From an uncultured Candidatus Saccharibacteria bacterium (GTDB lineage: Bacteria > Patescibacteriota > Andersenbacteria > UBA10190), in NCBI GenBank assembly GCA_964371255.1, contig CAYJKV010000005.1, positions 13,816 through 77,815 of the forward strand: a DNA stretch of 64,000 bases, written 5' to 3'. The position numbers and the translations under genes are program-made. Shown in pieces: positions 16,590-63,869 of this stretch. Under the pieces are notes generated by a model. It made no database searches, had not been told where the DNA came from, and worked only from the letters and a program-made list of their open reading frames with translations. Position 1 is the stretch's first letter. Every line of letters starts with the position of its first letter.

Positions 16590-16958
16590 ATGCCGCTTCG
16601 TAATATATTCATAACCCTGGCTATAATTGTTTTAGGCTGTTTGGTGCTGGGGTGGCTGTTTGGTTCAATCACAAGTGCTGCATATTCTTACAGAAAACGG
16701 ATAGACCCTGTTGGGCAATATTATCTGGATATTTTGTGGTGGAAACAGCAAGGGTGGGACTTGCTTAGATACGGCATAGGCGGATTCTTTATCTGTGTAC
16801 CGATGATTTTTGCTTTCTTTTTTCTGTTTGATAGTTTTAATGACTTGTTCAATCAAAATCCGCTTTCGCCAGTATTCCTCGGCAAGATGTTAATTCTATT
16901 TTTCGTGTCGGGTTTTTTGATGTATTCAGCCAACTCAATTCTTGAAAGCAGAGAATAA
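16590..16958 (+). CDS. Small membrane protein, hypothetical
   Basis: 122 aa with 3-4 hydrophobic helices. Confidence 0.45.
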   Translation: MPLRNIFITLAIIVLGCLVLGWLFGSITSAAYSYRKRIDPVGQYYLDILWWKQQGWDLLRYGIGGFFICVPMIFAFFFLFDSFNDLFNQNPLSPVFLGKMLILFFVSGFLMYSANSILESRE

Positions 16959-17342
16959 ATGACAAAAAAGCACGGTATCGTTCGCCTCGCCTTTCTTGAC
17001 GACGGCCTATCATCGCTGGCGTATGTCCTACACACGCTACAATCAGCCCAGCCTGTGTTGGAGAGTCAGGGAGTAATAATAGCCCTCACCATCCTGCCTA
17101 AGTCCTTACCCCAAACCAGGCACTACGTTGAAACAATGATACTGCGGCAGCAAGATATTCTCTTGTATAACCAGGAGCATCTAAAAAATGACACAGCCAC
17201 CTTATTTGGGGTTAAAGAAGTACAACCATACAGACTATGGCTACGGGAAGGTCAAGAGCACAATTCTGACGACTACGGCACGCTCCAAGAAGCCCTGCAA
17301 GCCGTGTTTGCTCACCTTAAAGTACAAACCCCAGCACTATGA
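16959..17342 (+). CDS. Hypothetical protein
   Basis: Starts at the stop of the previous ORF. No recognisable motif. Confidence 0.4.
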   Translation: MTKKHGIVRLAFLDDGLSSLAYVLHTLQSAQPVLESQGVIIALTILPKSLPQTRHYVETMILRQQDILLYNQEHLKNDTATLFGVKEVQPYRLWLREGQEHNSDDYGTLQEALQAVFAHLKVQTPAL

Positions 17343-17508
17343 TTACTCTCGAACAAGCCCGTAAATTTTATCCCAAAGACCAGTGTCCGCCTGACGACGT
17401 GATACTCCGCGTTCTCGCTTCATCTTACCGCCTCGCAGAAATGGAGTGGGACATTATGATGGACGAAAAAGCAGCAGAACGAAAAAAGAAAGATGGTAAG
17501 AAAAACCT

Positions 17509-17715
17509 ATGACTGTTGCCGAAGCACGCAAGTACCTTACTCCCGAAGATAACCAACGTCTGTCAGACGCAGAGGTGCAAAAACTCTTGGCCGAGGATTA
17601 TACTCTGGCAGATATAGCCATTGATGAAGTGCTGAACAATGGGCCGTTTTACAGGAAGTTGAAAAAGGAGAAAGATAAAAACAATGCCAAAGACTATCCG
17701 CATTCTGTTACTTGA
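17509..17715 (+). CDS. Hypothetical small protein
   Basis: 68 aa. Overlaps the next ORF. Confidence 0.3.
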   Translation: MTVAEARKYLTPEDNQRLSDAEVQKLLAEDYTLADIAIDEVLNNGPFYRKLKKEKDKNNAKDYPHSVT

Positions 17716-18097
17716 GGACGACCTGGCAACAGTTTCGGCTATCGCCCAAAAGCTGGCTGAGTTGGAACAGGATTTGCAGGAGCGCGGCACCGACATCGCC
17801 TTAACTGTACTATCTGAATACACGCAGGTGGAGCAATACATCAACACTGATAAAGTTCATCAATATGATATTGTCCTCCTTGACCGCGACTGCAAAGCTG
17901 GCGGGTCTTTCCACGCCCTGGATTTTGAGAGGATTGGCGTTGAGAAAATAATCTCCATTTCATCTACCCCGCAGTGGAACGAAGAAGCGCAAGCGCGAGG
18001 TATAACTAACGTTGTTTGGAAGGATTATAGCAACCTTGAAAACTTTGCAGCCGAACTATCGCACATTATCAGGAGCACCATAGCTGACTTGGCGTAA
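17684..18097 (+). CDS. Stand-alone CheY-like receiver-domain protein
   Basis: IRILLLEDD...DIVLLDRDC...IISISS resembles the acidic pocket, phospho-acceptor Asp and conserved Ser/Thr of REC domains. No output domain. Confidence 0.5.
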   Translation: MPKTIRILLLEDDLATVSAIAQKLAELEQDLQERGTDIALTVLSEYTQVEQYINTDKVHQYDIVLLDRDCKAGGSFHALDFERIGVEKIISISSTPQWNEEAQARGITNVVWKDYSNLENFAAELSHIIRSTIADLA

Positions 18098-18144
18098 CTG
18101 CTTTTCAGAGCCACACTAAAATTGGTTGCGTAAGGCGGCCACTA

Positions 18145-18909
18145 ATGAAAATGACGATGAAAGAACACGATAAAACTTTAGCTGACTATTATGCTGATGT
18201 AGTGCGGCGGATTAGCGAGCAGGCGGCGATTGAGGGGTATGGCAGTGAAATGATGGTTACTTTGCATCCGCCAAAACAAAAGACAGAAGCAGACATTATC
18301 TACAATTTGCATAATCGCGGAGCCCTGTGCATTACTGACAACAGCCAAGACACGATAACCCTGATAGCTTTACCTGAATTACAACGCTTACTTACTCCAA
18401 CGAACCGTGACATTAAATCCACCCGTGACCTCGCGACCATTGACTACGCTTTGCCACGGCCATCTGACGAGCGCAAGACATCGCCTGTTATGCAAAGCAG
18501 TGGCAACGCTTCAATTAAGTACCGAGACGAACCGCCCAAACCCAAACAAAAGCTGGGCTGGAAAGATACTTATTATCAACCAGGACACGCCGTATTTGAG
18601 CGCACTGCTGACAATAAAGGAGCCCTGAAAATTGTCGGCTACCAATCACTTTCATTTGAGAACATCCCCGCAGATATTGTTGAGTTTTTCTGTGCTCTAC
18701 CCCACCCCGACTCAAAGAAGCCGCGAACTTATGGTGACCTTCCAACAAGGATAAGGGACAAATGTAATAGTGAGCGGTATAGGAAAGCCATCGCAGAAAT
18801 TAACAAACGGTTCCGCAGGCATACGGAAGAAAAGTTTGGTGACCTAATCCATCGGGTAAAAAAAGAGCCTGGATACAACGAAGCCAACGAATACTATTGG
18901 GGATTATAG
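18145..18909 (+). CDS. Hypothetical protein (254 aa)
   Basis: No recognisable motif. Confidence 0.45.
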   Translation: MKMTMKEHDKTLADYYADVVRRISEQAAIEGYGSEMMVTLHPPKQKTEADIIYNLHNRGALCITDNSQDTITLIALPELQRLLTPTNRDIKSTRDLATIDYALPRPSDERKTSPVMQSSGNASIKYRDEPPKPKQKLGWKDTYYQPGHAVFERTADNKGALKIVGYQSLSFENIPADIVEFFCALPHPDSKKPRTYGDLPTRIRDKCNSERYRKAIAEINKRFRRHTEEKFGDLIHRVKKEPGYNEANEYYWGL

Positions 18910-19433
18910 TCCGTCGGGTGGTCGTCGGGTGTAGATAACTTTTGATTGAAAGGCTACATAAGCTTTCAATTTTTTGGCTAAAAATTACGTAAGCGTCCTG
19001 TTCCCGTCCGACGAGACGCGACCCTACCGTTGTAGGTAATGACACGAAGCATTACCTCAACTCAACACTGGACGACCAGCGACCTCGCAATGGCTGCTGC
19101 TATTTCGTTATGGGAACCAATTGAGGACATTGATACTTCGCGACCACGAGCAGTTTTCAAGTTTGCAAACTGTCAGCGAGTACAAGAACTGGCAGACAAA
19201 TACCACCGTGGAGTAATTCGCATCGAGCCACGCCAATTTTTTGACCAAATCCGCGCCGTCAAAGCGCGGATATACGCCTAATTTTATGCAGCCCACTGCC
19301 ACACAGGTTGCCCGTTACCAAGAACTGTACCGCCGCTACGGTATTGAAATTACCGAACAGCAAGCCCGCGAGGAAGGTGCAGCCCTAATGCAGCTTGTGT
19401 CGCGTATTTACCGACCCTTAACGCAAAAGGAAT

Positions 19434-19910
19434 ATGAACACTACCGACCAACCAAGCGATAATACAAAAAAAGAACCGCTCCCAACCACGGAAACGGTTT
19501 CTTCTATTTCCAGTGTACCGCAGGAGGACTACTACGCAAGCCGAGGTACTAAAGAGTGGCGTCAGGAACAAATTAGGAGCCTACGGGAGCGGCTGACTGA
19601 CCCGCGCTGGCACGTTCGTATGCCTGGAACGCTCTTTACGACCAAATGGCGAGAACTGTTAGGAAAAGGTACCTGTTATCAACTTTTAGCGGTGTTGATG
19701 CGAACGTGTAGCTGGGAACGCCGTGAGTGGCACGGGAACATCTTTCAGTTGGCAGCAGTTATGGGGTTATCCGAGCGGACGGTGCGCTATCAACTCAACA
19801 AACTAAAGCAGATTGATGGTTTCAAGGTACACCGTCACCCGTGGTCAATCACGATTTATATGCCTGACCGCATTTTTCCCAAAGATAAACGAGAGGGAAA
19901 GAAGGTATGA
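19434..19910 (+). CDS. Winged-helix DNA-binding protein (replication-initiator / DnaD-like?)
   Basis: The C-terminal region LAAVMGLSERTVRYQLNKLKQIDGF looks like a wHTH recognition helix. Confidence 0.4.
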   Translation: MNTTDQPSDNTKKEPLPTTETVSSISSVPQEDYYASRGTKEWRQEQIRSLRERLTDPRWHVRMPGTLFTTKWRELLGKGTCYQLLAVLMRTCSWERREWHGNIFQLAAVMGLSERTVRYQLNKLKQIDGFKVHRHPWSITIYMPDRIFPKDKREGKKV

Positions 19911-20190
19911 CCAGCTTACTAAAATGCGCGGCAATGGACTTCCAGCGTGCGGCAACCATACAAACACACATCGGCAATCGTCGTCCAGTGAACGGCAACA
20001 TAACGGATTTTGACAGCTTTTTTCCTTTTGGAAAAGTTACTCAATTTAGCCAGGAAATAAGGGTGAACGGCAATTTTTGTGCGCGCTGTACTAACTCCTT
20101 ATCGAATACGAATATCCAGCTCTTTTTAACAACTCATTCGAGAGGTGCGCAGATTTTTCTGAAGAAAAATCTGCTGCCCCAGGGGGCTTT

Positions 20191-20469
20191 ATGGAAAAAA
20201 TGACGGATAATCGTCCCAATCGCAATCGCATCCCCGTAAGCAAGTTTCAACCTCGCACACGGGAGGAACGGGTGATATACGAAATCGCGCAAGCGTTGAA
20301 CGAACCGTACATTGATTTTATTAAAAGTATCAAAGACCGCTTTGGTTTCGACCTCATTTGGGATGCGTGGCAGGAATACAAGGAAGTAATGAAGCGGGGC
20401 GCGCCTATTGAGCACCCGCGCGGTTTCTTTAACTACCTTATCAAAATCAGGCGGCCTGATAGGAAGTGA
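20191..20469 (+). CDS. Hypothetical protein
   Basis: 92-aa basic protein. Confidence 0.35.
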   Translation: MEKMTDNRPNRNRIPVSKFQPRTREERVIYEIAQALNEPYIDFIKSIKDRFGFDLIWDAWQEYKEVMKRGAPIEHPRGFFNYLIKIRRPDRK

Positions 20470-20777
20470 CTTGCCATTACTTAACCCTATGACGGCAGAA
20501 AAACTATCGAATCTATATAAACAGAGGAGGTGATGCGTACACGCAGTAAGCTCTTAAAAGAATTGAGAACGGCAATTTACTGCCGAACTGGACTTAGCAC
20601 CAAATGCAATGATATTATTAAAGCGTTGTCCCAGAGTCCGTTGTCATATCCGAAGTTTTTTTATTGGCCTTCCTGTCGCCAAAAGGGCGGTTCTGCCAGG
20701 AAGCCAACTCTTCGGAGAAAGCGGACTGGGACAACCAGAACCGTCCTTTTAGTTTGTAATGACTTGAAATAACTACT

Positions 20778-22388
20778 ATGGAAAATAAAAAAATGCGGTA
20801 CGTTATGTACCTTCGTAAAAGTACTGATGAGGATAATCGCCAGGTGCAGTCAATTGACGACCAGAAAAAAGAACTCGACCGCGTGGTGGAGCAGCACGGC
20901 TTAAATATTGTGGAGATTATCAGTGAGTCGCGGTCAGCCAAAAAACTTGGGCGGTCAGGCTTCAATAAAATGATTGAAATGATTGTAAGTGGCAGTGCCG
21001 ATGCAATTTTATGCTGGGAGGCAACCCGCCTCGCGCGTAATCCCGTTGATGGTGGAAAAATCCAGTGGCTTATGCTGGAAGGGAAAATTAAAGTGGTGCA
21101 CACCCCGCAACGAAAATACCTCTGTACTGACAATGTCATTATGATGGCTGTGGAGTTTGGTATGTCCACCCAGTTCAGTGTTGACCTGGCAAAAAATGTG
21201 AAGCGCGGAATGTTAAGCAAAGCAGAAAAAGGCTGGCGGCCAGGACAGGCTCCACTTGGCTATCTGAACGATAAGGTAGAAGAAAAAGGCAATAAGCGTA
21301 TCTACACGGATAATGAAAAGTTCCCTATTGTTCGTAAGCTATGGGACTTATTGCTATCAGGCAATTACACCGTCCCTGCGCTCGTCACTATTGCTAACGA
21401 GCAGCTTGGCCTGCGTACCAAGCGAGGCAAGAAAATCAGCCTGGGCAGCCTGTATCACCTGTTCAATGATAAGTTCTACTACGGTGAATACACTTTTGAC
21501 GGTGAAGTCTACCAGGGCAAGCACAAGCCAATGATTTCTGCCGAGGAGTTTGACCGCACCCAAAAGATTTTAGGCCGTGCGGGACGGCCGCGACCAAAGT
21601 ACAAGCGGCTACCATTTAATGGGTTAATCCAATGCGCTGCCTGCGGTCGCACTATCACCTGCGATGAGCGGGTCAAGGTCATTAAGCGTACAGGCGAAAC
21701 CAAAAGTTTTATGTACCATCGCTGCACGCATAAAACTAGGAACCACTACTGCCCGCAGCCGCCCGTGACATTTGGCAACTTGGTCGAGCAGGTGCAGCAG
21801 TACCTGGGTAACATCACTATCCCGCCAGAGTTCTTAGAGTGGGCCGTACAGTCACTACGCGAGCAGCAGAAGCTGGAAGAAACGAACCGCAACCAAATCC
21901 TCGCCAACCTACGGAACAACCACCAGAACGTGATTGACCGCATTGATAGTCTGGTCAACAACTATATCGCGCCAGAAAATGCCAAGCGCGAACTAATTAG
22001 CGACGATGATATGAAGCGGCAAAAGGCTGCGCTCCTGCAAGAGAAGTCAGTGATTGAGCGGGAGTTGAGTAACACAAGTCTGCGCGTTAATGAGTGGGTG
22101 GACTTAACCATCAAAACTTTTCACTTCGCCACCTACGCCAAAGCCTGGTTTGATAAAGGCGACTACGAAACCAAGACTGCTATTCTCCGCGCGCTTGGCG
22201 TGACATTCACACTCAAAGACCGTAGCCTCCTGTTGGACTTGAAAGGGCCGTACGTCGTCATTAAAAAAGGTGTTGCAGCAGGATTGTTTGAGAACCCCGT
22301 ACTCGGACTGGTCAGGAAGGCTCTGCAAGAGCCTGCGCTGGCTCAACAGCCTGAAATTGCATCCGTATTATCCAGTTGGAGCGGGTAA
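20778..22388 (+). CDS. Large serine recombinase (resolvase catalytic domain + recombinase domain + Zn ribbon)
   Basis: N-terminal YVMYLRKSTDEDNRQ..SIDDQ is the catalytic-Ser motif region. Mid-section matches the recombinase domain. C-terminal CAACGR..C...YHRCTHK..HYC is a Zn ribbon. The stop codon lies inside the tRNA-Gly 3' end. Confidence 0.9.
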   Translation: MENKKMRYVMYLRKSTDEDNRQVQSIDDQKKELDRVVEQHGLNIVEIISESRSAKKLGRSGFNKMIEMIVSGSADAILCWEATRLARNPVDGGKIQWLMLEGKIKVVHTPQRKYLCTDNVIMMAVEFGMSTQFSVDLAKNVKRGMLSKAEKGWRPGQAPLGYLNDKVEEKGNKRIYTDNEKFPIVRKLWDLLLSGNYTVPALVTIANEQLGLRTKRGKKISLGSLYHLFNDKFYYGEYTFDGEVYQGKHKPMISAEEFDRTQKILGRAGRPRPKYKRLPFNGLIQCAACGRTITCDERVKVIKRTGETKSFMYHRCTHKTRNHYCPQPPVTFGNLVEQVQQYLGNITIPPEFLEWAVQSLREQQKLEETNRNQILANLRNNHQNVIDRIDSLVNNYIAPENAKRELISDDDMKRQKAALLQEKSVIERELSNTSLRVNEWVDLTIKTFHFATYAKAWFDKGDYETKTAILRALGVTFTLKDRSLLLDLKGPYVVIKKGVAAGLFENPVLGLVRKALQEPALAQQPEIASVLSSWSG

Positions 22389-22451
22389 CGGGAGTCGAAC
22401 CCGTATCTCTACCTTGGCAAGGTAGTGTAAAAGCCATTATACGATACCCGC
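22377..22451 (-). tRNA. tRNA-Gly (anticodon GCC), CCA encoded
   Basis: Reverse-complement folds as acceptor GCGGGTA/TACCCGC, anticodon stem CTACC/GGTAG with loop TTGCCAA, T-arm ACGGG-TTCGACT-CCCGT, discriminator T, then CCA. Confidence 0.85.
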
Positions 22452-22520
22452 AGGTGATATTATTTGTACCTAATTATTATCAATGCATCAATAGCGTGTA
22501 AACAAATCGCCTGCACGCAA

Positions 22521-22560
22521 TGTTTTTCATTTTTCGCTTTACGCTTTTCGTTTCTCTTGT
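22521..22560. repeat. Conserved T-rich tRNA-trailer motif, copy A (gtttttcatttttcgctttacgcttttcg)
   Basis: About 25/29 identical to the motif at 63731-63779, and similar to the one at 58616-58668. Confidence 0.7.
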
Positions 22561-22631
22561 GCCGCGGGTCAGAGTTGAACTGACTACGCCGACCTCTTCA
22601 GGGTCGCGCTCTACCGATGAGCTACCGCGGC
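22560..22631 (-). tRNA. tRNA-Phe (anticodon GAA)
   Basis: Reverse-complement GCCGCGGTAGCTCATCGGTAGAGCGCGACCCTGAAGAGGTCGGCGTAGTCAGTTCAACTCTGACCCGCGGCA. Anticodon loop is CTGAAGA. Confidence 0.8.
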
Positions 22632-22860
22632 GTTTAAACAATTATTAGTTGTATCTCTGAGGATAAGAGAAAGAGCAATTAATATCAATTATTTCCCTGT
22701 CCAACCCTTAAAGCTAGCCAACCTATACGTAGGCGTAGCCAGCTGATCAAAGATTGACAAGATTAATAATAGCTACTAATTTTATAGGTCATGCATGAGG
22801 CTGTTTTTTCGTCAGCAAGGAAGTACTTTTTACAACTCTTTTTGTGGAAGGAAGTGAGAC

Positions 22861-23865
22861 GTGGGACGACCAGTAACTTTGTTCACAGGACAATGGGCAG
22901 ATCTGAAACTTGAGGAGCTAGCCGCCAAAGCAGCCAATTTCGGCTACGATGGGCTGGAACTCGCTTGTTGGGGAGACCATTTCGAAGTAGATCGAGCCAT
23001 CAATGAAGATGGCTACTGTGCCAAGCAACGCGCGATACTGGAGCGTTATGGATTGAAGTGTTACGCCATCAGCGCTCACCTGGTTGGTCAAGCCGTGTGT
23101 GACCTCATCGACGAACGTCATAAAAGCATCCTGCCTGAAGATGTATGGGGAGATGGTGATCCCGCGGGTGTGCGTTGGCGAGCTGCGGAGAAGATGAAGC
23201 AAACAGCCATAGCGGCCAAGAGATTCGGTGTCGAAGTAGTTAACGGCTTCGTGGGCAGCTCAATTTGGCACTTACTTTATTCTTTCCCACCAGCCTCGAG
23301 AGAAACGATCGCCGCCGGCTTCACCGATTTCAAAGAAAGGTGGACTCCAATTCTCGATCACTTTCGGGCAGTAGGCGTTAAGTTTGCTCTGGAGGTTCAC
23401 CCCACCGAAATCGCCTTTGATATTGCCTCAGCCAGTCGAGCCTTACAAGCTGTTGACTGGCACCGATCTTTCGGATTCAATTATGACCCGTCTCATCTCG
23501 CCTATCAAGGAGTAGACTACGTCAGATTCATCCGTGAGTTTGGGCAACGTGTCTTCCATGTACACATGAAGGACGTCTGGTGGAACCACGGTGACGGCAG
23601 CGTAGGAGTGTTTGGCGGACACACAGCCTTCGGTGATCCACGACGTTATTGGGACTTCCGCTCGCTTGGGCATGGCGATGTTAATTTCGAAGAGATCATC
23701 GTAGCGCTCAATGATGCTGGTTACCAAGGACCGCTTTCGGTGGAATGGGAAGACATGCGCATGGATCGTGAGCACGGGGCAGCAGAAGCCTGCCAGTTTG
23801 TGAGACGAGCAGACTTCAAACCATCAAACGTCGCTTTTGACGCCGCCTTCGATAAGGAATCATGA
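22861..23865 (+). CDS. Sugar phosphate isomerase/epimerase (xylose-isomerase-like TIM barrel family)
   Basis: GTG start. [17 protein letters not shown]...H.KD..W is characteristic of the AP-endonuclease-2/XylA-like TIM barrel. GC-rich. A TTGACA(17)TAATTT-like promoter lies upstream. Confidence 0.75.
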
Positions 23866-24036: not shown

Positions 24037-24137
24037 CCTTACACAGCGTCCTCGCCTAACACGGCATATCCAATATTTACTACCTAAAAGCTTTAGCCAG
24101 AACAACTAAAGACTATATCCACTGTTAATATCATTAG

Positions 24138-24222
24138 TGCGGACGGTGGGATTTGAACCCACAACCTCGTAATGAGGCACAGCCCCTCAAGCTGCTGCGT
24201 AAACCAATTCCGCCACGTCCGC
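24138..24222 (-). tRNA. tRNA-Leu (anticodon GAG), long variable arm
   Basis: Reverse-complement GCGGACGTGGCGGAATTGGTTTACGCAGCAGCTTGAGGGGCTGTGCCTCATTACGAGGTTGTGGGTTCAAATCCCACCGTCCGCA. Anticodon loop is TTGAGGG. Confidence 0.8.
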
Positions 24223-24256: not shown

Positions 24257-24967
24257 TCAAGCGATTCGCAATATCGACCCGCCCTTTTTGTAGCCTTTGG
24301 GTTGCTGTCCTTTCTGGGCGAGGTAATTAGCTGCCCATTGGCGATCAAGTTTTGCTTTTTTGCGCTGAAGACATGCGATGCAATCAGAGTAATACATTGC
24401 CTGGTAAATCTTCAGTGAGTTTTGTTTTGCATATTTCAAACAATATACCTTGGAGCCACGACGAACATGTCCAGATATTCCAGCTAATTTATTGACTGTT
24501 TGGTCAAGCCATACTAAATGTTTTTTACTAGCACAGGCAAAGCTAATGTAAAGCGAAACACTACTGTGCCATCGAGTATCCCAGTAGGCATGTGATGATC
24601 CATCGCCATCAAATTCTCCGCGTAAATAATCAAAAAAATATTGGTCTGGGATTTGTACTTTACCAATAGTGTGAGTTTTACGAGGAGTAATGCCTATAGA
24701 AACAAACCACTCGTAAAGGGTTACGTCACCAAATTGCACTTGTGAGCAACGATTTCCGTCACCCGAGGGCTTGCTGCTTATCTTAACATTTAAACTTAAG
24801 CATTTTTTAAATGTTTCTAATAATTGAGTATCCTTAGAAGTTAGGCTCAAGTGTCTACCGTCAGAATATAGGCATCCGTCAGTAGCCATAAGACCACAAG
24901 CGTAAGCTAACTCTGGTGTCCATTCTGGAATTCGTAGGCGCCTTGGTTTTGAACCTCTTTTCCCCAT
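24257..24967 (-). CDS. Free-standing double-motif LAGLIDADG homing endonuclease
   Basis: Motif 1 LAYACGLMATDGCL. Motif 2 YLRGEFDGDGSS, about 100 aa later. 236 aa with a basic C-terminus. Confidence 0.8.
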   Translation of the reverse strand: MGKRGSKPRRLRIPEWTPELAYACGLMATDGCLYSDGRHLSLTSKDTQLLETFKKCLSLNVKISSKPSGDGNRCSQVQFGDVTLYEWFVSIGITPRKTHTIGKVQIPDQYFFDYLRGEFDGDGSSHAYWDTRWHSSVSLYISFACASKKHLVWLDQTVNKLAGISGHVRRGSKVYCLKYAKQNSLKIYQAMYYSDCIACLQRKKAKLDRQWAANYLAQKGQQPKGYKKGGSILRIA

Positions 24968-53537: not shown

Positions 53538-53912
53538 ATGTATACTAAGCCCATGTCCATTATCACCCGTTATACCAAGCGATTATCCGTTATTCTGACC
53601 CTTGGGCTATTATTTTTGCCCCTTATCTCCCAGGCTCAGGCTACGCCCGCCAACTTTGAAAATCCCCTAGACCCTGTCAGGGACGTCCGGGTTCTAATTC
53701 AAAACCTAATTATTTGGCTTGTTGGATTATCGGCCCTCATCGCCCTTCTTGCTTTGGTTGTGGGAGGTATGCGTCTGATCGTTGGCGGTTTCGACAATGA
53801 ACAAGAAGCTGCCAAAGCAAAAAGAATTATTACCTGGGCTGTTATCGGCCTGGTTGTGGTAGCTATGGCGGCAGGCATTCTGTCTACACTCAGCGACGTA
53901 CTCGACATTTAA
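53538..53912 (+). CDS. TrbC/VirB2-like (CPR-type) pilin, single domain
   Basis: Signal peptide, then hydrophobic helix-GG-R-hydrophobic-acidic/basic loop-hydrophobic helix: LVVGGMRLIVGGFDNEQEAAKAKRIITWAVIGLVVVAMAAGI. Confidence 0.65.
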   Translation: MYTKPMSIITRYTKRLSVILTLGLLFLPLISQAQATPANFENPLDPVRDVRVLIQNLIIWLVGLSALIALLALVVGGMRLIVGGFDNEQEAAKAKRIITWAVIGLVVVAMAAGILSTLSDVLDI

Positions 53913-53930
53913 TCGATTAGATCATCACTT

Positions 53931-54563
53931 ATGCCTAAATTCCTGCCATCACTTATCATAATCCTGCTCGCTTGCGTCTTTTTAGTCTTACCCGTTCAAA
54001 TTCTTCATGCTCAAACGTCGTGCGACAACCTGTCCGCCTGCATAACCGAGACGTATTCTTGGGCCACCGAGACGGTTAGATTATCTCCATACACCATTAG
54101 TGAATTTCTGACTAACATCATAGTTTTTGTATCTTCCTTTGTTGCCATTGTGACAGCGGTCGTAATTTTGTTCGGTGGTCTCATGTACGTCTTTTCTGCT
54201 GGTGATGAAAGACGTGCCGCGCAAGCCAAAAACATTATTTTATTCGCCATTATTGGGCTAATCATTGCCGTCAATACCAGTATCATCGTCGGACTTATCC
54301 AAGACGTCGCTGGCGACCCTGCTGGTCCTGGTCTTGGGGTTGGGCCGATAATCGAACTGATTGGTCAGATTGGTATTATTATACTTGCTCCACTTGCTTT
54401 GATAGCCACTGGGGCCATCGTTTATGGCGGTTATATGTATATCACCTCGGCTGGTGAAGAAGATCGGGCTCGTCGTGGAAAACAAATAATTATCTACGCT
54501 CTCGTTGGTGTCTTTATTACCTTAATTTCAGCCTTAATAGTTAATGTTGTGATTTCGTTATAG
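53931..54563 (+). CDS. Tandem two-domain TrbC/VirB2-like pilin fusion
   Basis: Two copies of the pilin unit (..ILFGGLMYVFSAGDERRAAQAKNIILFAIIGL.. and ..IVYGGYMYITSAGEEDRARRGKQIIIYALVGV..) joined by a Gly/Pro linker. Confidence 0.65.
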   Translation: MPKFLPSLIIILLACVFLVLPVQILHAQTSCDNLSACITETYSWATETVRLSPYTISEFLTNIIVFVSSFVAIVTAVVILFGGLMYVFSAGDERRAAQAKNIILFAIIGLIIAVNTSIIVGLIQDVAGDPAGPGLGVGPIIELIGQIGIIILAPLALIATGAIVYGGYMYITSAGEEDRARRGKQIIIYALVGVFITLISALIVNVVISL

Positions 54564-54595
54564 CATTAAGCATCCTCACTAAAACTTTTAAGACC

Positions 54596-54985
54596 ATGCC
54601 TTTTAAGAACACCCTGCCCAAGTTACTGCAAACACGCATCTTATTATACGTCGTGTTCGTGTCATCTTTGTTTCCATTATCGACCTACGCCCAAGCTGTC
54701 AGGCCAGTGCCCAACCTGTGGTGTAGTCTGTGGGGAATCCGCTGCGGCGGTGGAGCGCCGCTTAATACTCTGTGGGGCATGCTGTGGTCAGTTGTCACCA
54801 TTGCTTTATCTTTTGTTGCCATTGTTGCTACTGCTTTTTTGGTCTATTATGGCTTTCTTTATGTAATGTCACGCGGCGAAGAGGACAACGCTCGTCGTGC
54901 CAAAGCCGGTATTGTTTATGCGATCCTGGGTATGATTGTTGCCGGTACAGCCGCTTGGCTGGTTAACGCTGTCATTAATATATAA
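54596..54985 (+). CDS. TrbC/VirB2-like pilin variant with a Cys pair in the mature N-terminus
   Basis: LWCSLWGIRCGG, then the pilin unit LVYYGFLYVMSRGEEDNARRAKAGIVYAILGM. Confidence 0.6.
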   Translation: MPFKNTLPKLLQTRILLYVVFVSSLFPLSTYAQAVRPVPNLWCSLWGIRCGGGAPLNTLWGMLWSVVTIALSFVAIVATAFLVYYGFLYVMSRGEEDNARRAKAGIVYAILGMIVAGTAAWLVNAVINI

Positions 54986-54987
54986 TT

Positions 54988-55812
54988 ATGGCCAGTATAG
55001 CAAAATCATTATTCTTTGTTGCCACCATCACTATCTTGGCCCTAAGCGTCTTCCCGGTTATCGCTCAAGTCCAACCAATTATTGCCCCCGATTGTGGTTT
55101 CTTGGGCATGAACTGTACGGGCGGTGAAACTTTTGGCGGCAATTTCGCTCCCTTTATGCTTACTCTCATCAACGTCGCTCTCGGCTTAATTGGTACCATA
55201 TCAACCGCCTTCATTGTTATTGGTGGCTACTTGTATGTCACCTCCACCGGTGACGAGCACAAGGCGGAAAGAGCTAAAAATCAGATTATTTACGCCATTC
55301 TTGGTCTTGTTGTTGCCGGTGGCGCATTTGCGCTAGTCAACACAGTCACTACTGTTACTTCCACTCCGCTCGTGTTTTACCTTGTGCCTTACGTTTTGAT
55401 GGCCTTATCTTTAGTTAGTATTATTGCCGCCATATACCTTGTTTATGCCGGATACTTATACATCACCTCCACCGGTGACGAGGAAAATTCTGCTCGCGCC
55501 AAACGGCAAATAGTCTACGCCATGCTCGGAATGTTTATTGCCAGTTCTGCTCTTGTTATCGTCAATGTTATCGCTAGTCGTGATGCCACGGGTCTAATCG
55601 TTAATATTCGCAGTGTTGTTAACACCCTTTTAACTATTCTGGGCGTCGCGGCGGCTGTGTATATTATTATCGCCGGCGCCATGTATATAACCTCTACTGG
55701 CGACCAAGACAAGTCGGCCAGGGCAAAAATGCAAATCGTCTACGCTCTGATCGGGATTGTTGTTATAATCTTGTCTGCCGTAGCTGTCAATCTCATCGTT
55801 AGGGCGGTCTAG
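54988..55812 (+). CDS. Tandem three-domain TrbC/VirB2-like pilin fusion
   Basis: Three pilin units (..GGYLYVTSTGDEHKAERAKNQIIYAILGL.. ; ..AGYLYITSTGDEENSARAKRQIVYAMLGM.. ; ..AGAMYITSTGDQDKSARAKMQIVYALIGI..). Starts 3 bp after the previous gene. Confidence 0.65.
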   Translation: MASIAKSLFFVATITILALSVFPVIAQVQPIIAPDCGFLGMNCTGGETFGGNFAPFMLTLINVALGLIGTISTAFIVIGGYLYVTSTGDEHKAERAKNQIIYAILGLVVAGGAFALVNTVTTVTSTPLVFYLVPYVLMALSLVSIIAAIYLVYAGYLYITSTGDEENSARAKRQIVYAMLGMFIASSALVIVNVIASRDATGLIVNIRSVVNTLLTILGVAAAVYIIIAGAMYITSTGDQDKSARAKMQIVYALIGIVVIILSAVAVNLIVRAV

Positions 55813-55890
55813 CCTCTCCCTTCCCGCGCCGTCCAAAATCCCTATTATCTAAATTTTATAAATAAGCTATATTAACATCACACCAAGGAG

Positions 55891-56250
55891 GTGAATTTTA
55901 TGAAAATAAAAACTACCCTTTTCGTTTTAGCGTTTCTCATGTTTCTGTTGGTCCCCACTGCATCTTTAGTTGCTAGCGGCCTGACGACAGTGACACCTTT
56001 TGAGGGTACTGCCACAAATAGGGATCCTATCGTGGCCATAACTAACCTGGTTAACGGTTTGCTGGTTGTTGTCGGTATTATCGCGGCTATTTTCGTTGTT
56101 ATTGGTGGTATGCGCTATATCTTCTCGCAAGGCGATGAAGACGCTCAGGTTCAGGCGCGTAACACAATTCTCGCGGCCGTGATAGGTATCGTTGTGGTTA
56201 TTCTATCCGCCGTGGTTGTGAACTTGGTGATCAGGGCTGCTCGAGGATAA
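55891..56250 (+). CDS. TrbC/VirB2-like pilin, single domain
   Basis: AGGAGGTGA ribosome-binding site. Signal peptide. VVIGGMRYIFSQGDEDAQVQARNTILAAVIGIVVV. Confidence 0.7.
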   Translation: MNFMKIKTTLFVLAFLMFLLVPTASLVASGLTTVTPFEGTATNRDPIVAITNLVNGLLVVVGIIAAIFVVIGGMRYIFSQGDEDAQVQARNTILAAVIGIVVVILSAVVVNLVIRAARG

Positions 56251-56548
56251 ACTATTACAATCTAAATCATTGTCTGGGTCGCTGACGGCTTCTGCGGCGA
56301 TTTTTGCTAAGCAAACAAGATATTTACTCAAGCAAACATCCAGTCACGCGCTTAGCGCAATTATTTACCTGCTAATTTAACAGACACCGATGGTCTCGGC
56401 ACAAACGTAGATAACCTACACTGGACTCTGCTGTTTTAACTCATGAAGACTGCCGGCAAAAATTTGCGACTATAGTTTACTCAAGAAAAGTGCTATATTT
56501 TTCATATAATCCACGCCCAGACAGAAGGCGTTATAAATTTTTCAGGAG

Positions 56549-56902
56549 GTGATACAAATGATTTGCAAAAAAACTATACTAACCATCTCGCTCGTGAGTT
56601 TAGTGCTTCCTCTGGTCGTCAGCGCCCAAGGATTCTCGCCTGTCACACCGTTTGCTGGCACTTCTACTGGCACCTTGATTCAGGCCATCACCAACATAGT
56701 TAACGCGTTATTAGCCCTCGCTGCTGTTATCGCTGCTATTTTCGTCATTATTGGCGGAGTTCGTTATGTTACCTCCCAAGGCGACGAGGATGCTTCCGAG
56801 CAGGCTAAAGGCACTGTCCTTTATGCAATAGTCGGCATTATCATAATCGCCCTGTCAGCTGTTATTGTGAACTATATTATTGCCGCTGTCCCAGCGGGAT
56901 AA
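56549..56902 (+). CDS. TrbC/VirB2-like pilin, single domain (close paralog of 60036-60377)
   Basis: AGGAGGTGA ribosome-binding site. QGFSPVTPFAGTSTGTLIQAITNIVNALLALAAVIAAIFVIIGGVRYVTSQGDEDASEQAKG. Confidence 0.7.
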   Translation: MIQMICKKTILTISLVSLVLPLVVSAQGFSPVTPFAGTSTGTLIQAITNIVNALLALAAVIAAIFVIIGGVRYVTSQGDEDASEQAKGTVLYAIVGIIIIALSAVIVNYIIAAVPAG

Positions 56903-57222: not shown

Positions 57223-58416
57223 ATGTGCTCATCTCCCACCCGCGTCCTGATTATCGCTCCCACCCCCTTCTTCGCCGACCGGGGTTGCCATATTCATATC
57301 GCCGAACAAGCCTTGGCGCTGCAGCGCCAAGGGCTTGTCACACTAATGGTCACATATGGTCTCGGCCGGGATGTTGACGGTATTAAAACCATGCGTACAT
57401 GGCGGTTGCCCTGGTATAAACAAGAAGCCATCGGCCCCAGTTGGCATAAGTTCTATCTTGACGTGTTTTTGTTTATTGTAGCCCTTCTAGCCGTCCGGCG
57501 ATTTAAGCCTCAGGTAATCCACGGCCATTTACATGAAGGCTGCCTGATCGCATGGAGCATTAGCCGCCTTTTTAAAATCCCCTTTGTTTTTGATTGCCAG
57601 GGGAGTTTAACAGGGGAATTACTTGTCCATAATTTCATTCTGGCCAAAACCAACTGGTTAAAAGGCTTCTGGTACGCGTTAGAACAAGCCATCGATCATT
57701 TGCCCAATATTATCCTCGCTCAATCAACGGAAATGCGTCGTGAGCTCATTGTGCGTTTTAAGATTGATCCCAGTCGTATTGTGATGGCTTACGACGGTGT
57801 TAATACTCACGTCTTTCACCCCCAACAAAAAGACCCACAACTTCTCCGGGAATTAAAACTGCCTGCCGACCAACCAATTATCGTGTATCTAGGGGGGCTA
57901 AGTCCGCACAAAGGAGTTGATGTATTGCTTAAAGCCTTTCAGGTTGTGTTGCAGACCCACCCTGCTGTTTTCCTGTTGCTTATGGGCTATCCCCACGAAG
58001 CCAACTACCAACAGTTAGCGCAATCGCTTCGGATAAATCATCGCACTCGGATCACGGGCCGTGTCCGCTACCAAGACGCTCCGCGCTATCTTGCCCTTGG
58101 TGACATCGCGGTTGCTCCCAAGCGTACCCAGACTGAAGCCAATGGGAAAATCTATAACTACATGGCCACCGGATTGCCCACTGTTGCTTTTGATACGGTG
58201 GTCAACCGTGACATCTTAGGTGATATCGGCGTTTATACCAATCCATCTGATGATTATCGTGGTCTGGCCCAAGCCCTGAACAAATTATTAAATGATCCGT
58301 CAGCAGCGCGTCTTATTGCCGGTCAAGTACGTACCAAAGCTGTCGCTCGCTATTCGTGGGATCGTGTTGCTGATCGTATAATAGCTGCTTATCAGCGCAT
58401 TCAAGCTCCCTTTTAG
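57223..58416 (+). CDS. Glycosyltransferase family 4 (GT-B, RfaG-like)
   Basis: The C-terminal domain (GGLSPHKGVDVLLKAF ... E...G.P) is GT4-like. Confidence 0.8.
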   Translation: MCSSPTRVLIIAPTPFFADRGCHIHIAEQALALQRQGLVTLMVTYGLGRDVDGIKTMRTWRLPWYKQEAIGPSWHKFYLDVFLFIVALLAVRRFKPQVIHGHLHEGCLIAWSISRLFKIPFVFDCQGSLTGELLVHNFILAKTNWLKGFWYALEQAIDHLPNIILAQSTEMRRELIVRFKIDPSRIVMAYDGVNTHVFHPQQKDPQLLRELKLPADQPIIVYLGGLSPHKGVDVLLKAFQVVLQTHPAVFLLLMGYPHEANYQQLAQSLRINHRTRITGRVRYQDAPRYLALGDIAVAPKRTQTEANGKIYNYMATGLPTVAFDTVVNRDILGDIGVYTNPSDDYRGLAQALNKLLNDPSAARLIAGQVRTKAVARYSWDRVADRIIAAYQRIQAPF

Positions 58417-58615
58417 TTTCTCCACATGTCAAACTGGTAGGGGACATGCCCCTAGTGAGAATGGGCAACCTTAGAAACACAAAAGGAAAAACGGAAAGTG
58501 AAAATCGCTGTGTAAAAAAATACATCGATATAATCCGCATAAACTAAGTAGTAACAGAGTGATAGACATTATAAATACAGACTGGGATCCTCAATTAGCT
58601 AAAAATACCAAGCTA

Positions 58616-58668
58616 TTTTTTGAATTTTTAATTGTTGTTTTTCGTTTTTAGCTTTACGTTTTTCGTTC
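58616..58668. repeat. Conserved T-rich motif, copy B (aattgttgtttttcgtttttagctttacgtttttcg), not next to a tRNA
   Basis: Shares the 14-mers aattgttgtttttc and ctttacgtttttcg with copy C at 63731-63779. Confidence 0.7.
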
Positions 58669-58768
58669 TTTCAGATTTCCTTCAGTTTATCCCTAGGGAA
58701 CCCCATCGGGGGATTTCGGATTTAACTCATTAGTCTTTTAACCCTTCTTACGATATTGTTCTTAATAA

Positions 58769-59929
58769 ATGACAACAAAATTCAACCCCCACCTCTTTTT
58801 AGCTGTCTTTTTAGTCTCCTTTCTGATTCATTCCAGCTATTTTCGGTTAATAACTTTTGCGGACTATGACAAATGGGTCGCACGAACCATTAACTTGTCA
58901 GAGGACATATTGACCCCATCACCGCAAATACGTTTTTTTGACGTGAATCACGAATACCGTTATGGTTCGCATCCCGGCACAACCTTTCTTCTGCCCGCTG
59001 CCTCTTTATATAAACTTGGCCTGCCTGGTCCCACCAGCCTCTTCCTCAGCATTACATTCATTTCTTCTTTCTTGACCGCTTCTATTGCAGCTGCCTGCCA
59101 TCACTTAAGGCCCAGAAGTCCCTGGTGGCTGATATCGTCGATTATTCTCTTTATCCACCCGCTCTACTTCTACAGCACACCGACTAATGCTATTATCGGG
59201 CCCATCACTGCCTTGCTTTTCCTCTTAGCCCTAATTGTGTACGAGCAAAGGAAGCAATCGTTGTCTGTTGGTTTAATATTGTTTATATCATTCATTTTTG
59301 GGCTAGGCTTATCTACTCGCTTGCACGATACAGTATTCATTGGTGCTCCCCTGATCACTTTTATAGGTGCCTATGTGCGTAAAAAACACCTTATCTTAAT
59401 GATCTTGGCAGCGGCTTTATTCGCTTTCGTCCTTAACCCGTTCCTCTGGTTCATTCCCCTGGAATATCTGAAGACCGCCATTCTACGCACCTCTTCTCAT
59501 CTCGCCTACACTGGGATGCCTGGTTTCAACCTTACTCTTCTTTGGGCGCTTTATTATACGCCGCTGACCATTATCTCTATTGCCCTCGCGGTCGTGTCCT
59601 TTATCTTTGCCCGAAAAAAACTACCCGTTTCTTCTCCCTTTCTTCTCACTCTGTTTCTCATTACTGCCATCACCATCGGTCTGTTCCGAAGCGCCAACTT
59701 TAAAACGCTTCGCTATTTCTACCCATTAATTTTTACTTGGGATATTTTCTTGCCGCTATTTCTCCTTTGCTTGTCTGACAATATTTACTTTCCTTTTATT
59801 TCTTCAGTGCGTTCTGCCCTCTACGCCCGTCATTTAACGCGCCTCGTGCTAATGGTAATCGTCGTTTTTGGCTTTGCTTTTCTGACCGCCTATAACTTGC
59901 TTTTGCCTGGTTCTCAAGGACTTATTTAA
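58769..59929 (+). CDS. Polytopic membrane protein (about 11 TM), possible glycosyl/oligosaccharyl-transferase-like
   Basis: Hydrophobic throughout, with short loops. The only functional hint is its position next to the GT4 gene and the pilin genes. Confidence 0.45.
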   Translation: MTTKFNPHLFLAVFLVSFLIHSSYFRLITFADYDKWVARTINLSEDILTPSPQIRFFDVNHEYRYGSHPGTTFLLPAASLYKLGLPGPTSLFLSITFISSFLTASIAAACHHLRPRSPWWLISSIILFIHPLYFYSTPTNAIIGPITALLFLLALIVYEQRKQSLSVGLILFISFIFGLGLSTRLHDTVFIGAPLITFIGAYVRKKHLILMILAAALFAFVLNPFLWFIPLEYLKTAILRTSSHLAYTGMPGFNLTLLWALYYTPLTIISIALAVVSFIFARKKLPVSSPFLLTLFLITAITIGLFRSANFKTLRYFYPLIFTWDIFLPLFLLCLSDNIYFPFISSVRSALYARHLTRLVLMVIVVFGFAFLTAYNLLLPGSQGLI

Positions 59930-60035: not shown

Positions 60036-60377
60036 ATGAACATTAAGAAAGTATTAGCTACCACAGCCGCTGTCGGTTTGATAGCGATTCCAATGATTGC
60101 CTCTGCTCAAGGATTTGCACCGGTGACTCCATTTGAAGGGACTTCAACCGGCACACTGATTCAAGCCATCACCAACATTGTTAACGCTCTACTCACCTTG
60201 GCTGCTGTTATCGCCGCTATCTTTGTCATCATCGGTGGCGTGCGGTACATAACCGCTCAAGGAGATGAAGATGCAGTCGCAGCTGCGAAGAACACAGTTA
60301 TCTATGCCGTCATCGGTATAGTCGTGATTGCTTTATCAGCCGTAGTCGTCAACTTCATTATTGCTGCCATCCCGTAA
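60036..60377 (+). CDS. TrbC/VirB2-like pilin, single domain
   Basis: AAGGAGGTGAGGAGG ribosome-binding site. QGFAPVTPFEGTSTGTLIQAITNIVNALLTLAAVIAAIFVIIGGVRYITAQGDEDAVAAAKN. Confidence 0.7.
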   Translation: MNIKKVLATTAAVGLIAIPMIASAQGFAPVTPFEGTSTGTLIQAITNIVNALLTLAAVIAAIFVIIGGVRYITAQGDEDAVAAAKNTVIYAVIGIVVIALSAVVVNFIIAAIP

Positions 60378-63413: not shown

Positions 63414-63730
63414 TTCTTAACTCCTGTTCGGGTAGGTTAGATTGTCAACGAGCTGCCAAAACAGCCCAAAAGCACACAAAAACTACAACACTTTACTATA
63501 TGTCATAATAACCGTCATGTCAAGTTATTAACCGTCAGTTCTCAACAGTCAAGAAAAACCGTGTATTGACCCCAGAAAAGATGAATGAAGGGGGTTTCAT
63601 TTCCAGACATTAGCGACAAACCCTTCTAACTGTCAGAATATCTATGCGAATATACCCTCAACCGGTGAGCGCTTACTTTCAGTCATTATTCGGACCCTTA
63701 CCTTATCAATAACTCACAAAACCAGAGAAT

Positions 63731-63779
63731 CTTTTAATTTTCAATTGTTGTTTTTCACTTTTCACTTTACGTTTTTCGC
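63731..63779. repeat. Conserved T-rich tRNA-trailer motif, copy C
   Basis: cttttaattttcaattgttgtttttcacttttcactttacgtttttcgc, immediately 3' of tRNA-Leu(TAG). Confidence 0.7.
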
Positions 63780-63787
63780 TGTCTAAG

Positions 63788-63869
63788 TGCGGATGAGAGG
63801 ACTCGAACCTCCAAGGGTTGCCCCACATGGTCCTAAACCATGCGCCTTTACCAATTTGGCCACATCCGC
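63788..63869 (-). tRNA. tRNA-Leu (anticodon TAG), long variable arm
   Basis: Reverse-complement GCGGATGTGGCCAAATTGGTAAAGGCGCATGGTTTAGGACCATGTGGGGCAACCCTTGGAGGTTCGAGTCCTCTCATCCGCA. Anticodon loop is TTTAGGA. Confidence 0.8.

Follow-up and report, generated by a model that had tools for sequence, protein, structure and literature searches.

Three T-rich heptad arms in a 64-kb window

The 64-kb window analyzed here, a stretch of contig CAYJKV010000005.1 from an uncultured Candidatus Saccharibacteria bacterium, carries a short T-rich intergenic sequence, the heptad arm, at three sites, two of them next to tRNA genes. A preliminary description of this DNA had reported a motif in these places. Using a degenerate pattern derived from its consensus (GTTTTTCNYTTTNNRCTTTACGYTTTTCG, ≤3 mismatches, both strands), we matched 22522-22550, 58637-58665 and 63750-63778, all on the + strand, with 0 matches expected from 100 dinucleotide-preserving shuffles of the window. 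A profile hidden Markov model of the arm confirmed the same three sites and no others in the window (E 1e-10 to 4e-9), and found no fourth copy in the rest (~12 kb) of the 76.5-kb source contig. The three copies, together with the two adjacent tRNA genes as placed by ARAGORN and Rfam, are as follows.

22514-22554, + strand: copy 1, T-rich heptad arm, unpaired, without inner TTTTGAA heptads (profile E 4e-9)
22559-22631, - strand: tRNA-Phe(GAA), 3´ CCA not encoded; directly after the gene on its sense strand comes the A-rich complement of copy 1
58615-58669, + strand: copy 2, T-rich heptad arm, unpaired, inner heptads present (TTTTTGAATTTTTAATTGTTG; profile E 4e-9)
63728-63783, + strand: copy 3, T-rich heptad arm, unpaired, inner heptads present (profile E 1e-10)
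63787-63869, - strand: tRNA-Leu(TAG), 3´ CCA not encoded; directly after the gene on its sense strand comes the A-rich complement of copy 3

As had been described, the motif lies just 3´ of both tRNA-Phe and tRNA-Leu(TAG); both genes are on the - strand, and their sense strand next to the motif reads as an A-rich run (..CGAAAAGCGTAAAGCGAAAAATGAAAAAC..). Copy 1 sits in the 107-nt spacer separating tRNA-Phe from tRNA-Gly. Copy 2 is located ~200 nt past a glycosyltransferase gene (57223-58416), with ~105 nt between the end of its core and the start of a membrane-protein gene (58769-59929). No tRNA is near copy 2, as had been noted, and neither ARAGORN nor Rfam placed an RNA gene beside it; a search of its flank (58350-58850) against Rfam at E ≤ 10 likewise gave no credible match. 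Copies 2 and 3 form a pair of direct repeats separated by 5.1 kb.

The 29-nt cores of the three copies are identical at 25-26/29 positions in pairwise comparisons. The longer 5´ extension attributed to the last two copies was also found, with ~20 further bases (..AATTGTTG..) common to the copies at 58.6 and 63.7 kb. Written as heptads, the consensus is GTTTTGA ATTTTGA ATTRTKG TTTTTCG CTTTTCG CTTTACG YTTTTCG, that is, ~seven imperfect units each with a core of three to five T residues. Arrays of at least four TTT[T/A]NNN units were found in the window at these three sites only, where shuffles predict 0.01. The T-rich strand of all three copies is the + strand of a window in which GC skew is negative nearly throughout (1-64000, cumulative -3.9 over 64 kb).

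The window copies carry no promoter, terminator or known RNA signatures. A partner A-rich arm was absent from either strand of the window, and the predicted folding of the three copies, on both strands, was no better than that of shuffled sequences (z -0.8 to +1.4). No terminator-like site was detected within 300 nt of any copy on either strand, in line with the earlier statement that the motif is not a terminator hairpin, and a scan of the window against Rfam 15 at the gathering score returned tRNA matches only.

More than 20 metagenome assemblies from one study contain the source contig again, each time with all three copies. Synteny is lost in the closest relatives (75-77% protein identity). 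For the sugar-phosphate isomerase encoded at 22861-23865, the best homologues are 75-77% identical and have source names of Sedimentisphaerales or Planctomycetota. The window is bacterial in its gene density and content, and the analysis placed the contig in Planctomycetota (Sedimentisphaerales-like).

Related copies and their paired form

We scanned one genome per species for exact-pattern matches to TTTTTCNNTTTTNNCTTTACGNTTTT, which yielded 44 loci (cited below by L number). About 20 of them have sequence outside the pattern in common or possess an inverted partner, while roughly half are unrelated look-alikes (Acinetobacter, Lachnospiraceae and others) that apparently represent lysine-rich coding or other conserved sequence. 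A metagenome scan contributed 22 more loci, including L052-L059 and L063. By lineage, loci from the genome scan include:

Atribacterota: L001, L026, L028
Planctomycetia: L005, L011, L029
Sedimentisphaerales: L002, L007
Candidate Phyla Radiation (CPR): L004, L014, L023, L034, L039

The resemblance extends past the sequence used for searching. In L001, L026, L028, L007, L004, L023 and L067, the 20 bases upstream are (G)TTTTGAATTTTGAATTATGG or near variants. An inner 23-mer from the Atribacterota copies, which lies outside the search pattern, had its two best matches on both strands of the window at 58615 (18/23) and 63728 (17/23), in register. On this basis, the same ordered arm is present in at least three phyla (Atribacterota, Planctomycetota and CPR/Patescibacteria), in genomes that range from 30% to 58% GC or more. 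The membership of a Bacteroidota locus (L020) and of a gammaproteobacterial locus (L008) is doubtful.

Candidate in-frame insertions into open reading frames (ORFs) in the style of Rickettsia palindromic elements (L008, L040, L056, L071 and L073) turned out to be coding look-alikes and not elements. ATP-dependent DNA ligases of CPR and related bacteria (L071, P0121-P0180) contain a conserved lysine-rich linker (..QLSEKRKAKSEK..), whose codons on one contig are identical to the 28-nt search pattern. Alignment of 60 ligase homologues identified the SEKRKAKSEK stretch as a native, length-conserved linker, a warning that searches with A/T-rich motifs catch native coding sequence.

Searches of E. 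coli genomes and plasmid collections gave no matches, phages gave two marginal hits only, and a scan of IMG/VR gave lysine-rich coding look-alikes only; a phage or plasmid origin is unsupported. We also rejected a small peptide as the product of the element: read by eye, its frames lack conservation, and a stop falls early in L026. Comparison of eight related loci with Rfam at E ≤ 1 yielded nothing matching at the elements.

Many of the related copies are paired. In L004, L005, L011, L014, L023, L026, L029, L034, L039, L052/L063, L058 and L059, an inverted A-rich arm precedes the T-rich arm, giving an A-rich arm, a centre and a T-rich arm, a palindrome of 80-130 nt capable of forming a hairpin. 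Long hairpins between the A-rich and T-rich arms were predicted for the first nine of these loci, with folding z relative to shuffles of -7.5/-7.9 in L011 and -7.2 in L039. The paired copies thus combine inverted terminal arms with the absence of an ORF, which the three single-arm window copies do not. The better-folding strand was the T-arm strand in six of the nine paired copies and the other strand in three, with no convincing link to gene direction.

The centre contains two GC-rich mini-hairpins in the copies of Planctomycetia type and one in L059. When six Planctomycetia-type copies were aligned, 92.9% of cells were paired, compared with 43-55% when the partner column was slid. Five of the ten mini-hairpin pairs vary on both sides, a number reached by 0 of 500 shuffles; examples of the compensatory pairs are GTCAC/GTGAC, GTCGC/GCGAC, GCCGC/GCGGC and GCCAC/GTGGC. 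With six sequences, this covariation of the central hairpins is suggestive rather than conclusive.

A bidirectional intrinsic terminator consists of an A tract, a GC hairpin and a T tract. The copies of Planctomycetia type, L059 and L027 resemble this arrangement, having an A-rich arm, one or more GC-rich hairpins and a T-rich arm past gene 3´ ends. Unlike such terminators, however, no copy lies between convergent genes, several are internal to operons, the T run does not abut the hairpin, and the window copies lack any hairpin. In L005, L011 and L029, the hairpin and T run, read by eye, are on the strand opposite to the flanking genes.

Placement beside genes and tRNAs

To describe the context of the copies, we identified flanking ORFs by translation and scored 23 spacers. 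Co-directional genes flank 22 of these and divergent genes one, with none between convergent genes; copies internal to operons were found at ftsI-murE, rplE-rpsN, clpP-clpP, pabB-pabC and between tRNAs. Polarity is the same throughout, the outer "CG" end (..CTTTACGYTTTTCGYT) facing the nearest gene or tRNA. Followed in gene direction, the start of the A-rich strand usually lies within ~10 nt of where the upstream gene or tRNA ends (68 nt in L027), and in at least L007 and L023 the TAA in CGTAAAG serves as the stop codon of that gene. On the other side, 5-207 nt separate the end of the T-rich strand from the downstream start. The neighbours share no theme other than being core genes of small genomes.

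A promoter-like module was among the readings first proposed for the motif. Along the T-rich strand, the arm could be a portable promoter or UP-like module with a possible -35 element (TTGTTG/TTATGG), a 17-nt T-rich spacer and a -10 element (TACGYT). This strand is directed at a gene or tRNA on the same strand, 5-207 nt away, in many loci, such as clpP in L002 (16 nt), dnaE in L005 (21 nt), rsmI in L053 (8 nt), tRNA-Lys in L039 (5-9 nt) and the gene after the 58.6-kb window copy (~105 nt), as well as in L035, L011, L001, L020, L024, L028 and L037, and in L052, L037 and L028 a good sigma-70-type promoter 2-38 nt past the arm leaves the arm in the position of an UP element. In the window, however, none of the three copies is overlapped or followed by a promoter-like site, and two of them point into the 3´ end of a tRNA gene, which is the antisense direction. 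At least L007 and L027 run against their flanking genes, the Planctomycetia copies are without the TTG of the proposed -35 element, the distance to real promoters varies, many loci lack a -35/-10 pair, and no consistent pair was found. Unsupported in the window and with patchy support elsewhere, a promoter role is very unlikely.

The association with tRNAs in the window is close. The chance that two of three copies would land within 10 nt of a tRNA 3´ end is ~1.4e-6, and 8-9 nt separate the outer "CG" end of copy 1 from the 3´ end of tRNA-Phe, and that of copy 3 from the 3´ end of tRNA-Leu(TAG). From the last conserved heptad to the discriminator base, the distance is 9 nt at both window tRNAs and at a Saccharibacteria tRNA-Val (L014), and 8 nt at the tRNA-Arg of L039; the sequence of the 9 nt in between is not conserved. 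Among ~30 related copies recovered from other genomes, four or five abut a tRNA 3´ end, the tRNA-abutting copies by name being window Phe, window Leu, L014 Val and L039 Arg. The remaining ones adjoin the ends or starts of protein genes, for instance clpP, dnaE, alaS, ftsI-murE and rplE-rpsN.

These positions bear on another early proposal, a tRNA 3´ trailer or processing signal, in which the A-rich complement after tRNA-Phe and tRNA-Leu would guide 3´-end maturation. In its favor, the A-rich array begins 0-7 nt past the called 3´ end of all four named tRNAs, the offset from the discriminator base is 9 nt for three and 8 nt for the other, and neither motif-bearing window tRNA encodes CCA. However, the motif is carried by only two of the eight window tRNAs, and five of the six lacking it are likewise without an encoded CCA. 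Most family members adjoin protein genes or lie upstream of genes, with the same arm in the reverse relation. No RNA gene neighbours the third window copy, and the 9 nt next to the tRNA are not conserved. A trailer signal is accordingly unlikely, and we give it only a slim chance.

Three observations concern the tRNA genes themselves. The only window tRNA with an encoded CCA is tRNA-Gly(GCC), the other seven, including the two next to the motif, being without it. On the Saccharibacteria contig L014 (1469-1620), a T-rich heptad array lies 7 nt 5´ of tRNA-Val(GAC) and an A-rich arm 5 nt past its called 3´ end, such that the arrays are directed toward the gene from either side; in a precursor transcript they might pair with each other across it. 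In L035 (6067-6200), a tRNA-like start (GCGGGATCGTCTAATGG..) directly follows the heptad arm; ARAGORN made no call there, and the sequence may be an interrupted or unusual tRNA gene.

The third early proposal, a target or scar of a tRNA-targeting mobile element, fared differently in its two parts. Mobility comes closest of the three proposals to the reading we favor below, but tRNA targeting in a strict sense does not fit a family in which only four or five of ~30 copies abut a tRNA. In its specific form, the motif would be the attachment site or scar of an integrative element that targets tRNAs, for example one with the large serine recombinase encoded at 20778-22388. This 536-aa recombinase ends 134 nt from copy 1, with its 3´ end overlapping tRNA-Gly, and 5.1 kb separate copies 2 and 3, which are direct repeats. 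Yet the motif includes no tRNA sequence, stopping 8-9 nt short of the tRNA, and has no second copy at the far side of the recombinase island. The 5.1-kb segment between copies 2 and 3 contains no integrase, and its genes (for a pilin-like protein and membrane proteins) are similar to those on either side. All population contigs have the same fixed arrangement, and related copies elsewhere lie between housekeeping genes with no recombinase near. The attachment-site reading is largely refuted, and we regard it as barely credible.

The recombinase gene (+ strand) encodes Resolvase, Recombinase and zinc-ribbon domains and has a 12-nt overlap with tRNA-Gly(GCC) (22377-22451, - strand). It is preceded by a run of small ORFs without Pfam hits, and the region 16590-22451 is probably an integrated element at tRNA-Gly. 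Three contigs of other samples start at the same point, ~110 nt past tRNA-Phe (near 22741), which suggests a structural variant.

Strain turnover and the nature of the element

Copies of the element differ between closely related strains. In the Atribacterota locus L026, a paired copy occupies the ftsI-murE spacer. We compared this locus with others encoding FtsI homologues of 98, 97, 95, 84, 79 and 76% identity and found the paired copy in L026 only. It is absent from L102-L107 (98% FtsI identity), L099/L100 (97%), L097 (95%) and L094 (84%), in which the spacer is 122-145 nt, although the ftsI-murE synteny is kept across strains and the 70 nt ahead of murE are nearly identical. Presence in L026 and absence in close strains indicate gain or loss of the element within the time over which strains diverge. 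In L101 (98%), the spacer contains a different palindrome (arms GCCAGAATTCAGGA/TCCTGAATTCTG..), and the ftsI-murE spacer is a collector of small palindromes. This second palindromic repeat family of Atribacterota (arms ..GCCAGAATTCAGGA / TCCTGAATTCTGACTCCTGG..) was seen in L101 (3194-3288), in the ftsI-murE spacer, and in L001 (1885-2000), directly beside an unpaired heptad arm.

The arrays also change by slippage of whole heptads. L052 and L063, otherwise 98-99% identical, differ by a 21-nt indel of three heptads, and the heptad register is visible in every copy. Intergenic heptamer repeats are over-represented in bacteria, with slippage offered as the cause (PMC4692102). The arms might accordingly be seen as local heptamer minisatellites generated by polymerase slippage, for example from A/T tracts at terminator-like hairpins, and alike through shared mutational bias without any mobility. 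Consistent with such an origin, in addition to the indel, generic T4N3 heptad arrays of other units are common in the same loci (0.01 expected from shuffles), and the paired copy of L026 is not a clean insertion. Slippage does not readily account for a fixed order of heptad types common to Atribacterota, Planctomycetota and CPR, including in the unsearched parts of the arm. Nor does it account for the presence or absence of an entire paired block with its non-repetitive centre as a unit among close strains, or for a central hairpin structure conserved across copies in one genome. We consider slippage alone distinctly improbable.

We favor, with a probability of about 0.5, the reading that the three window sites are single, unpaired arms of a small non-coding and non-autonomous propagating repeat, similar to a MITE (a transposable element of the miniature inverted-repeat type) or a REPIN. 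Its arm is ~45-55 bp long, with inner TTTTGAA-type heptads, a TKG heptad and outer TTTTCG/CTTTACG-type heptads in fixed order. Several features fit such an element: several copies per genome, no coding capacity, location in short co-directional spacers, differences in presence between near-identical strains and arrays that change by whole heptads. The repeat may spread via an enzyme acting in trans or via recombination. The three window copies would then be half-elements with little or no function of their own, and their adjacency to tRNAs would reflect a preference or tolerance for the very end of transcription units and not tRNA biology.

A number of observations weigh against a propagating repeat. 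No mobilising gene (transposase, RAYT or other) and no full-length autonomous copy was found among the fetched loci. No target-site duplication was seen by eye at the outer ends of L005, L011, L029, L039 and L026, a weak negative given the uncertainty of the exact ends, and the copy in L026 lies inside ~290 extra nt, with no clean insertion or target duplication visible. Empty sites for the window copies were also lacking, every population contig carrying the copies. The near-constant 9-nt offset from tRNAs of three specificities in two phyla is not predicted by random insertion. Unpaired arms are well conserved without a partner, which argues that the arm itself is recognised and is not just a decaying half. 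Finally, native lysine-rich coding sequence is also caught by the pattern, and some of the unpaired hits are uncertain members. With respect to transposases, no arms were found to bracket such a gene among the fetched loci; an IS3-type transposase ORF near L067 (family assigned from its C-terminal sequence) lies 226 nt outside the arm.

The conservation of unpaired arms and the exact tRNA offset would be better accounted for by a functional boundary element than by a propagating repeat. Here a conserved protein that binds DNA or RNA would use the arm, an unstructured heptad array, as its platform where transcription units end, with a role in insulation, RNA stability or translational coupling across the hairpin, with its spread secondary to function. 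The ordered sequence of unpaired arms is retained across phyla without a pairing partner, and the lack of structure on both strands (z -0.8 to +1.4) fits a single-strand binding platform. The polarity is strict, with the "CG" end toward the nearest gene or tRNA, and highly expressed core genes are frequent among the neighbours (tRNAs, clpP, rplE-rpsN, efp, eno and alaS). Compensatory changes are seen in the central hairpins, and in its 7-bp register the arm is reminiscent of the arrays to which ribbon-helix-helix proteins bind. Against such a role, the element is dispensable at ftsI-murE in strains 95-98% identical in FtsI, occurs as just three copies in 76 kb and at two of eight tRNAs, and varies in heptad number. 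Its neighbours have no common theme except core genes of small genomes, and no candidate protein was identified. We view a boundary function as unlikely, though it deserves to be kept in mind.

A more far-reaching version, which we hold to be quite doubtful, makes the arm the recognition end of a new kind of small element that spreads horizontally among Atribacterota, Planctomycetota and CPR, and that docks at the 3´ ends of tRNA and protein genes with fixed polarity and a fixed 9-nt tRNA offset. If so, it would imply new targeting machinery, or a conserved host protein, that reads the ends of genes or transcripts.

Known repeats share parts of this description. Like REP (repetitive extragenic palindromic), BIME (bacterial interspersed mosaic element) and REPIN sequences, which are mobilised by REP-associated tyrosine transposases (RAYTs), the heptad element is a short non-coding extragenic repeat that occurs as inverted doublets forming long hairpins and also as singlets (PMC3116915, PMC3733652, PMC2817692). 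REP superfamilies are common to several phyla (PMC3116915, PMC3733652, PMC2817692). The sites are likewise just past stop codons and within operons, some copies overlapping gene ends. Unlike the 20-40-nt palindromic REP unit, however, the heptad unit is not palindromic and is unstructured (z -0.8 to +1.4), a GTAG or CGTC head is missing from the arm, no gene for a RAYT was seen, and three copies in 76 kb is a low density.

The Correia elements of Neisseria are MITEs of 80-150 bp that lie at gene boundaries and can supply stop codons; the paired heptad copies fall into the same size range. With bacterial MITEs, the heptad element shares inverted terminal arms, the absence of an ORF, presence or absence between strains and sites at gene boundaries (PMC10969869, PMC3184786). 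It differs from them in lacking a visible target-site duplication and a known parent insertion sequence with matching ends, in the variable number of tandem heptads that make up its arms, and in the occurrence of the same arm in several phyla.

Among the nearest published parallels are the TAACTGA heptamer repeats of Beggiatoaceae, Cyanobacteria and Bacteroidetes, which are also intergenic tandem heptamers, often just upstream of start codons and in ribosomal-protein operons (PMC4679880). These repeats are patchy across phyla, suggesting horizontal spread without an evident vehicle (PMC4679880), and the heptad element is similarly patchy in its cross-phylum distribution. TAACTGA arrays are, however, pure direct repeats of one unit with almost no inverted partner, whereas the heptad element has another unit sequence, differing heptads in fixed order and often an inverted partner. 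Heptamer simple sequence repeats (GGGAATC in Xanthomonas, GGGGA(T/C)T in Nostoc and heptanucleotides in Calothrix) are alike in being intergenic, in varying in length among close relatives and in sometimes forming inverted arrays capable of a stem-loop (PMC4692102). In contrast to the heptad element, which is T/A-rich and cross-phylum with a defined polarity toward genes, they are G-rich and genus-specific, with proposed G-quadruplexes (PMC4692102). No description of the present family was found in the literature searched, which covered few papers from subscription journals and is weak evidence of novelty; the element appears undescribed.

REPs and MITEs have so far been described mostly in cultivated Proteobacteria, Firmicutes and Cyanobacteria; the heptad family appears confined to uncultured lineages of Atribacterota, Planctomycetota and CPR. 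It consists of ordered heptads instead of a simple palindrome, and a sequence of ~50 nt is nearly constant across genomes of 30% to 58% GC or more. If the element is mobile, something transfers DNA among very distant phyla of the same anoxic habitats; if it is functional, it marks the boundaries of transcription units via a shared recognition system. In practice, hairpins and unstable arrays at gene ends can break assemblies and shift predicted stop codons, and the element can be mistaken for regulatory motifs or tRNA-linked signals.

Two further features of the window lie apart from the heptad arms. A free-standing ORF of the LAGLIDADG homing-endonuclease type (236 aa, 24257-24967, - strand), with no intron or intein context seen, ends 34 nt upstream of tRNA-Leu(GAG) (24137-24222, - strand). 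A cluster of small proteins is encoded on either side of the glycosyltransferase gene near copy 2 (53538-56902 and 60036-60377), an uncommon feature in a Planctomycetota contig that initially pointed to a CPR origin. The ORF at 60036-60377, the only one of the cluster scanned, matched Pfam T4SS_pilin/TrbC, and the precomputed gene calls of the contig place six further upstream ORFs in the same families.

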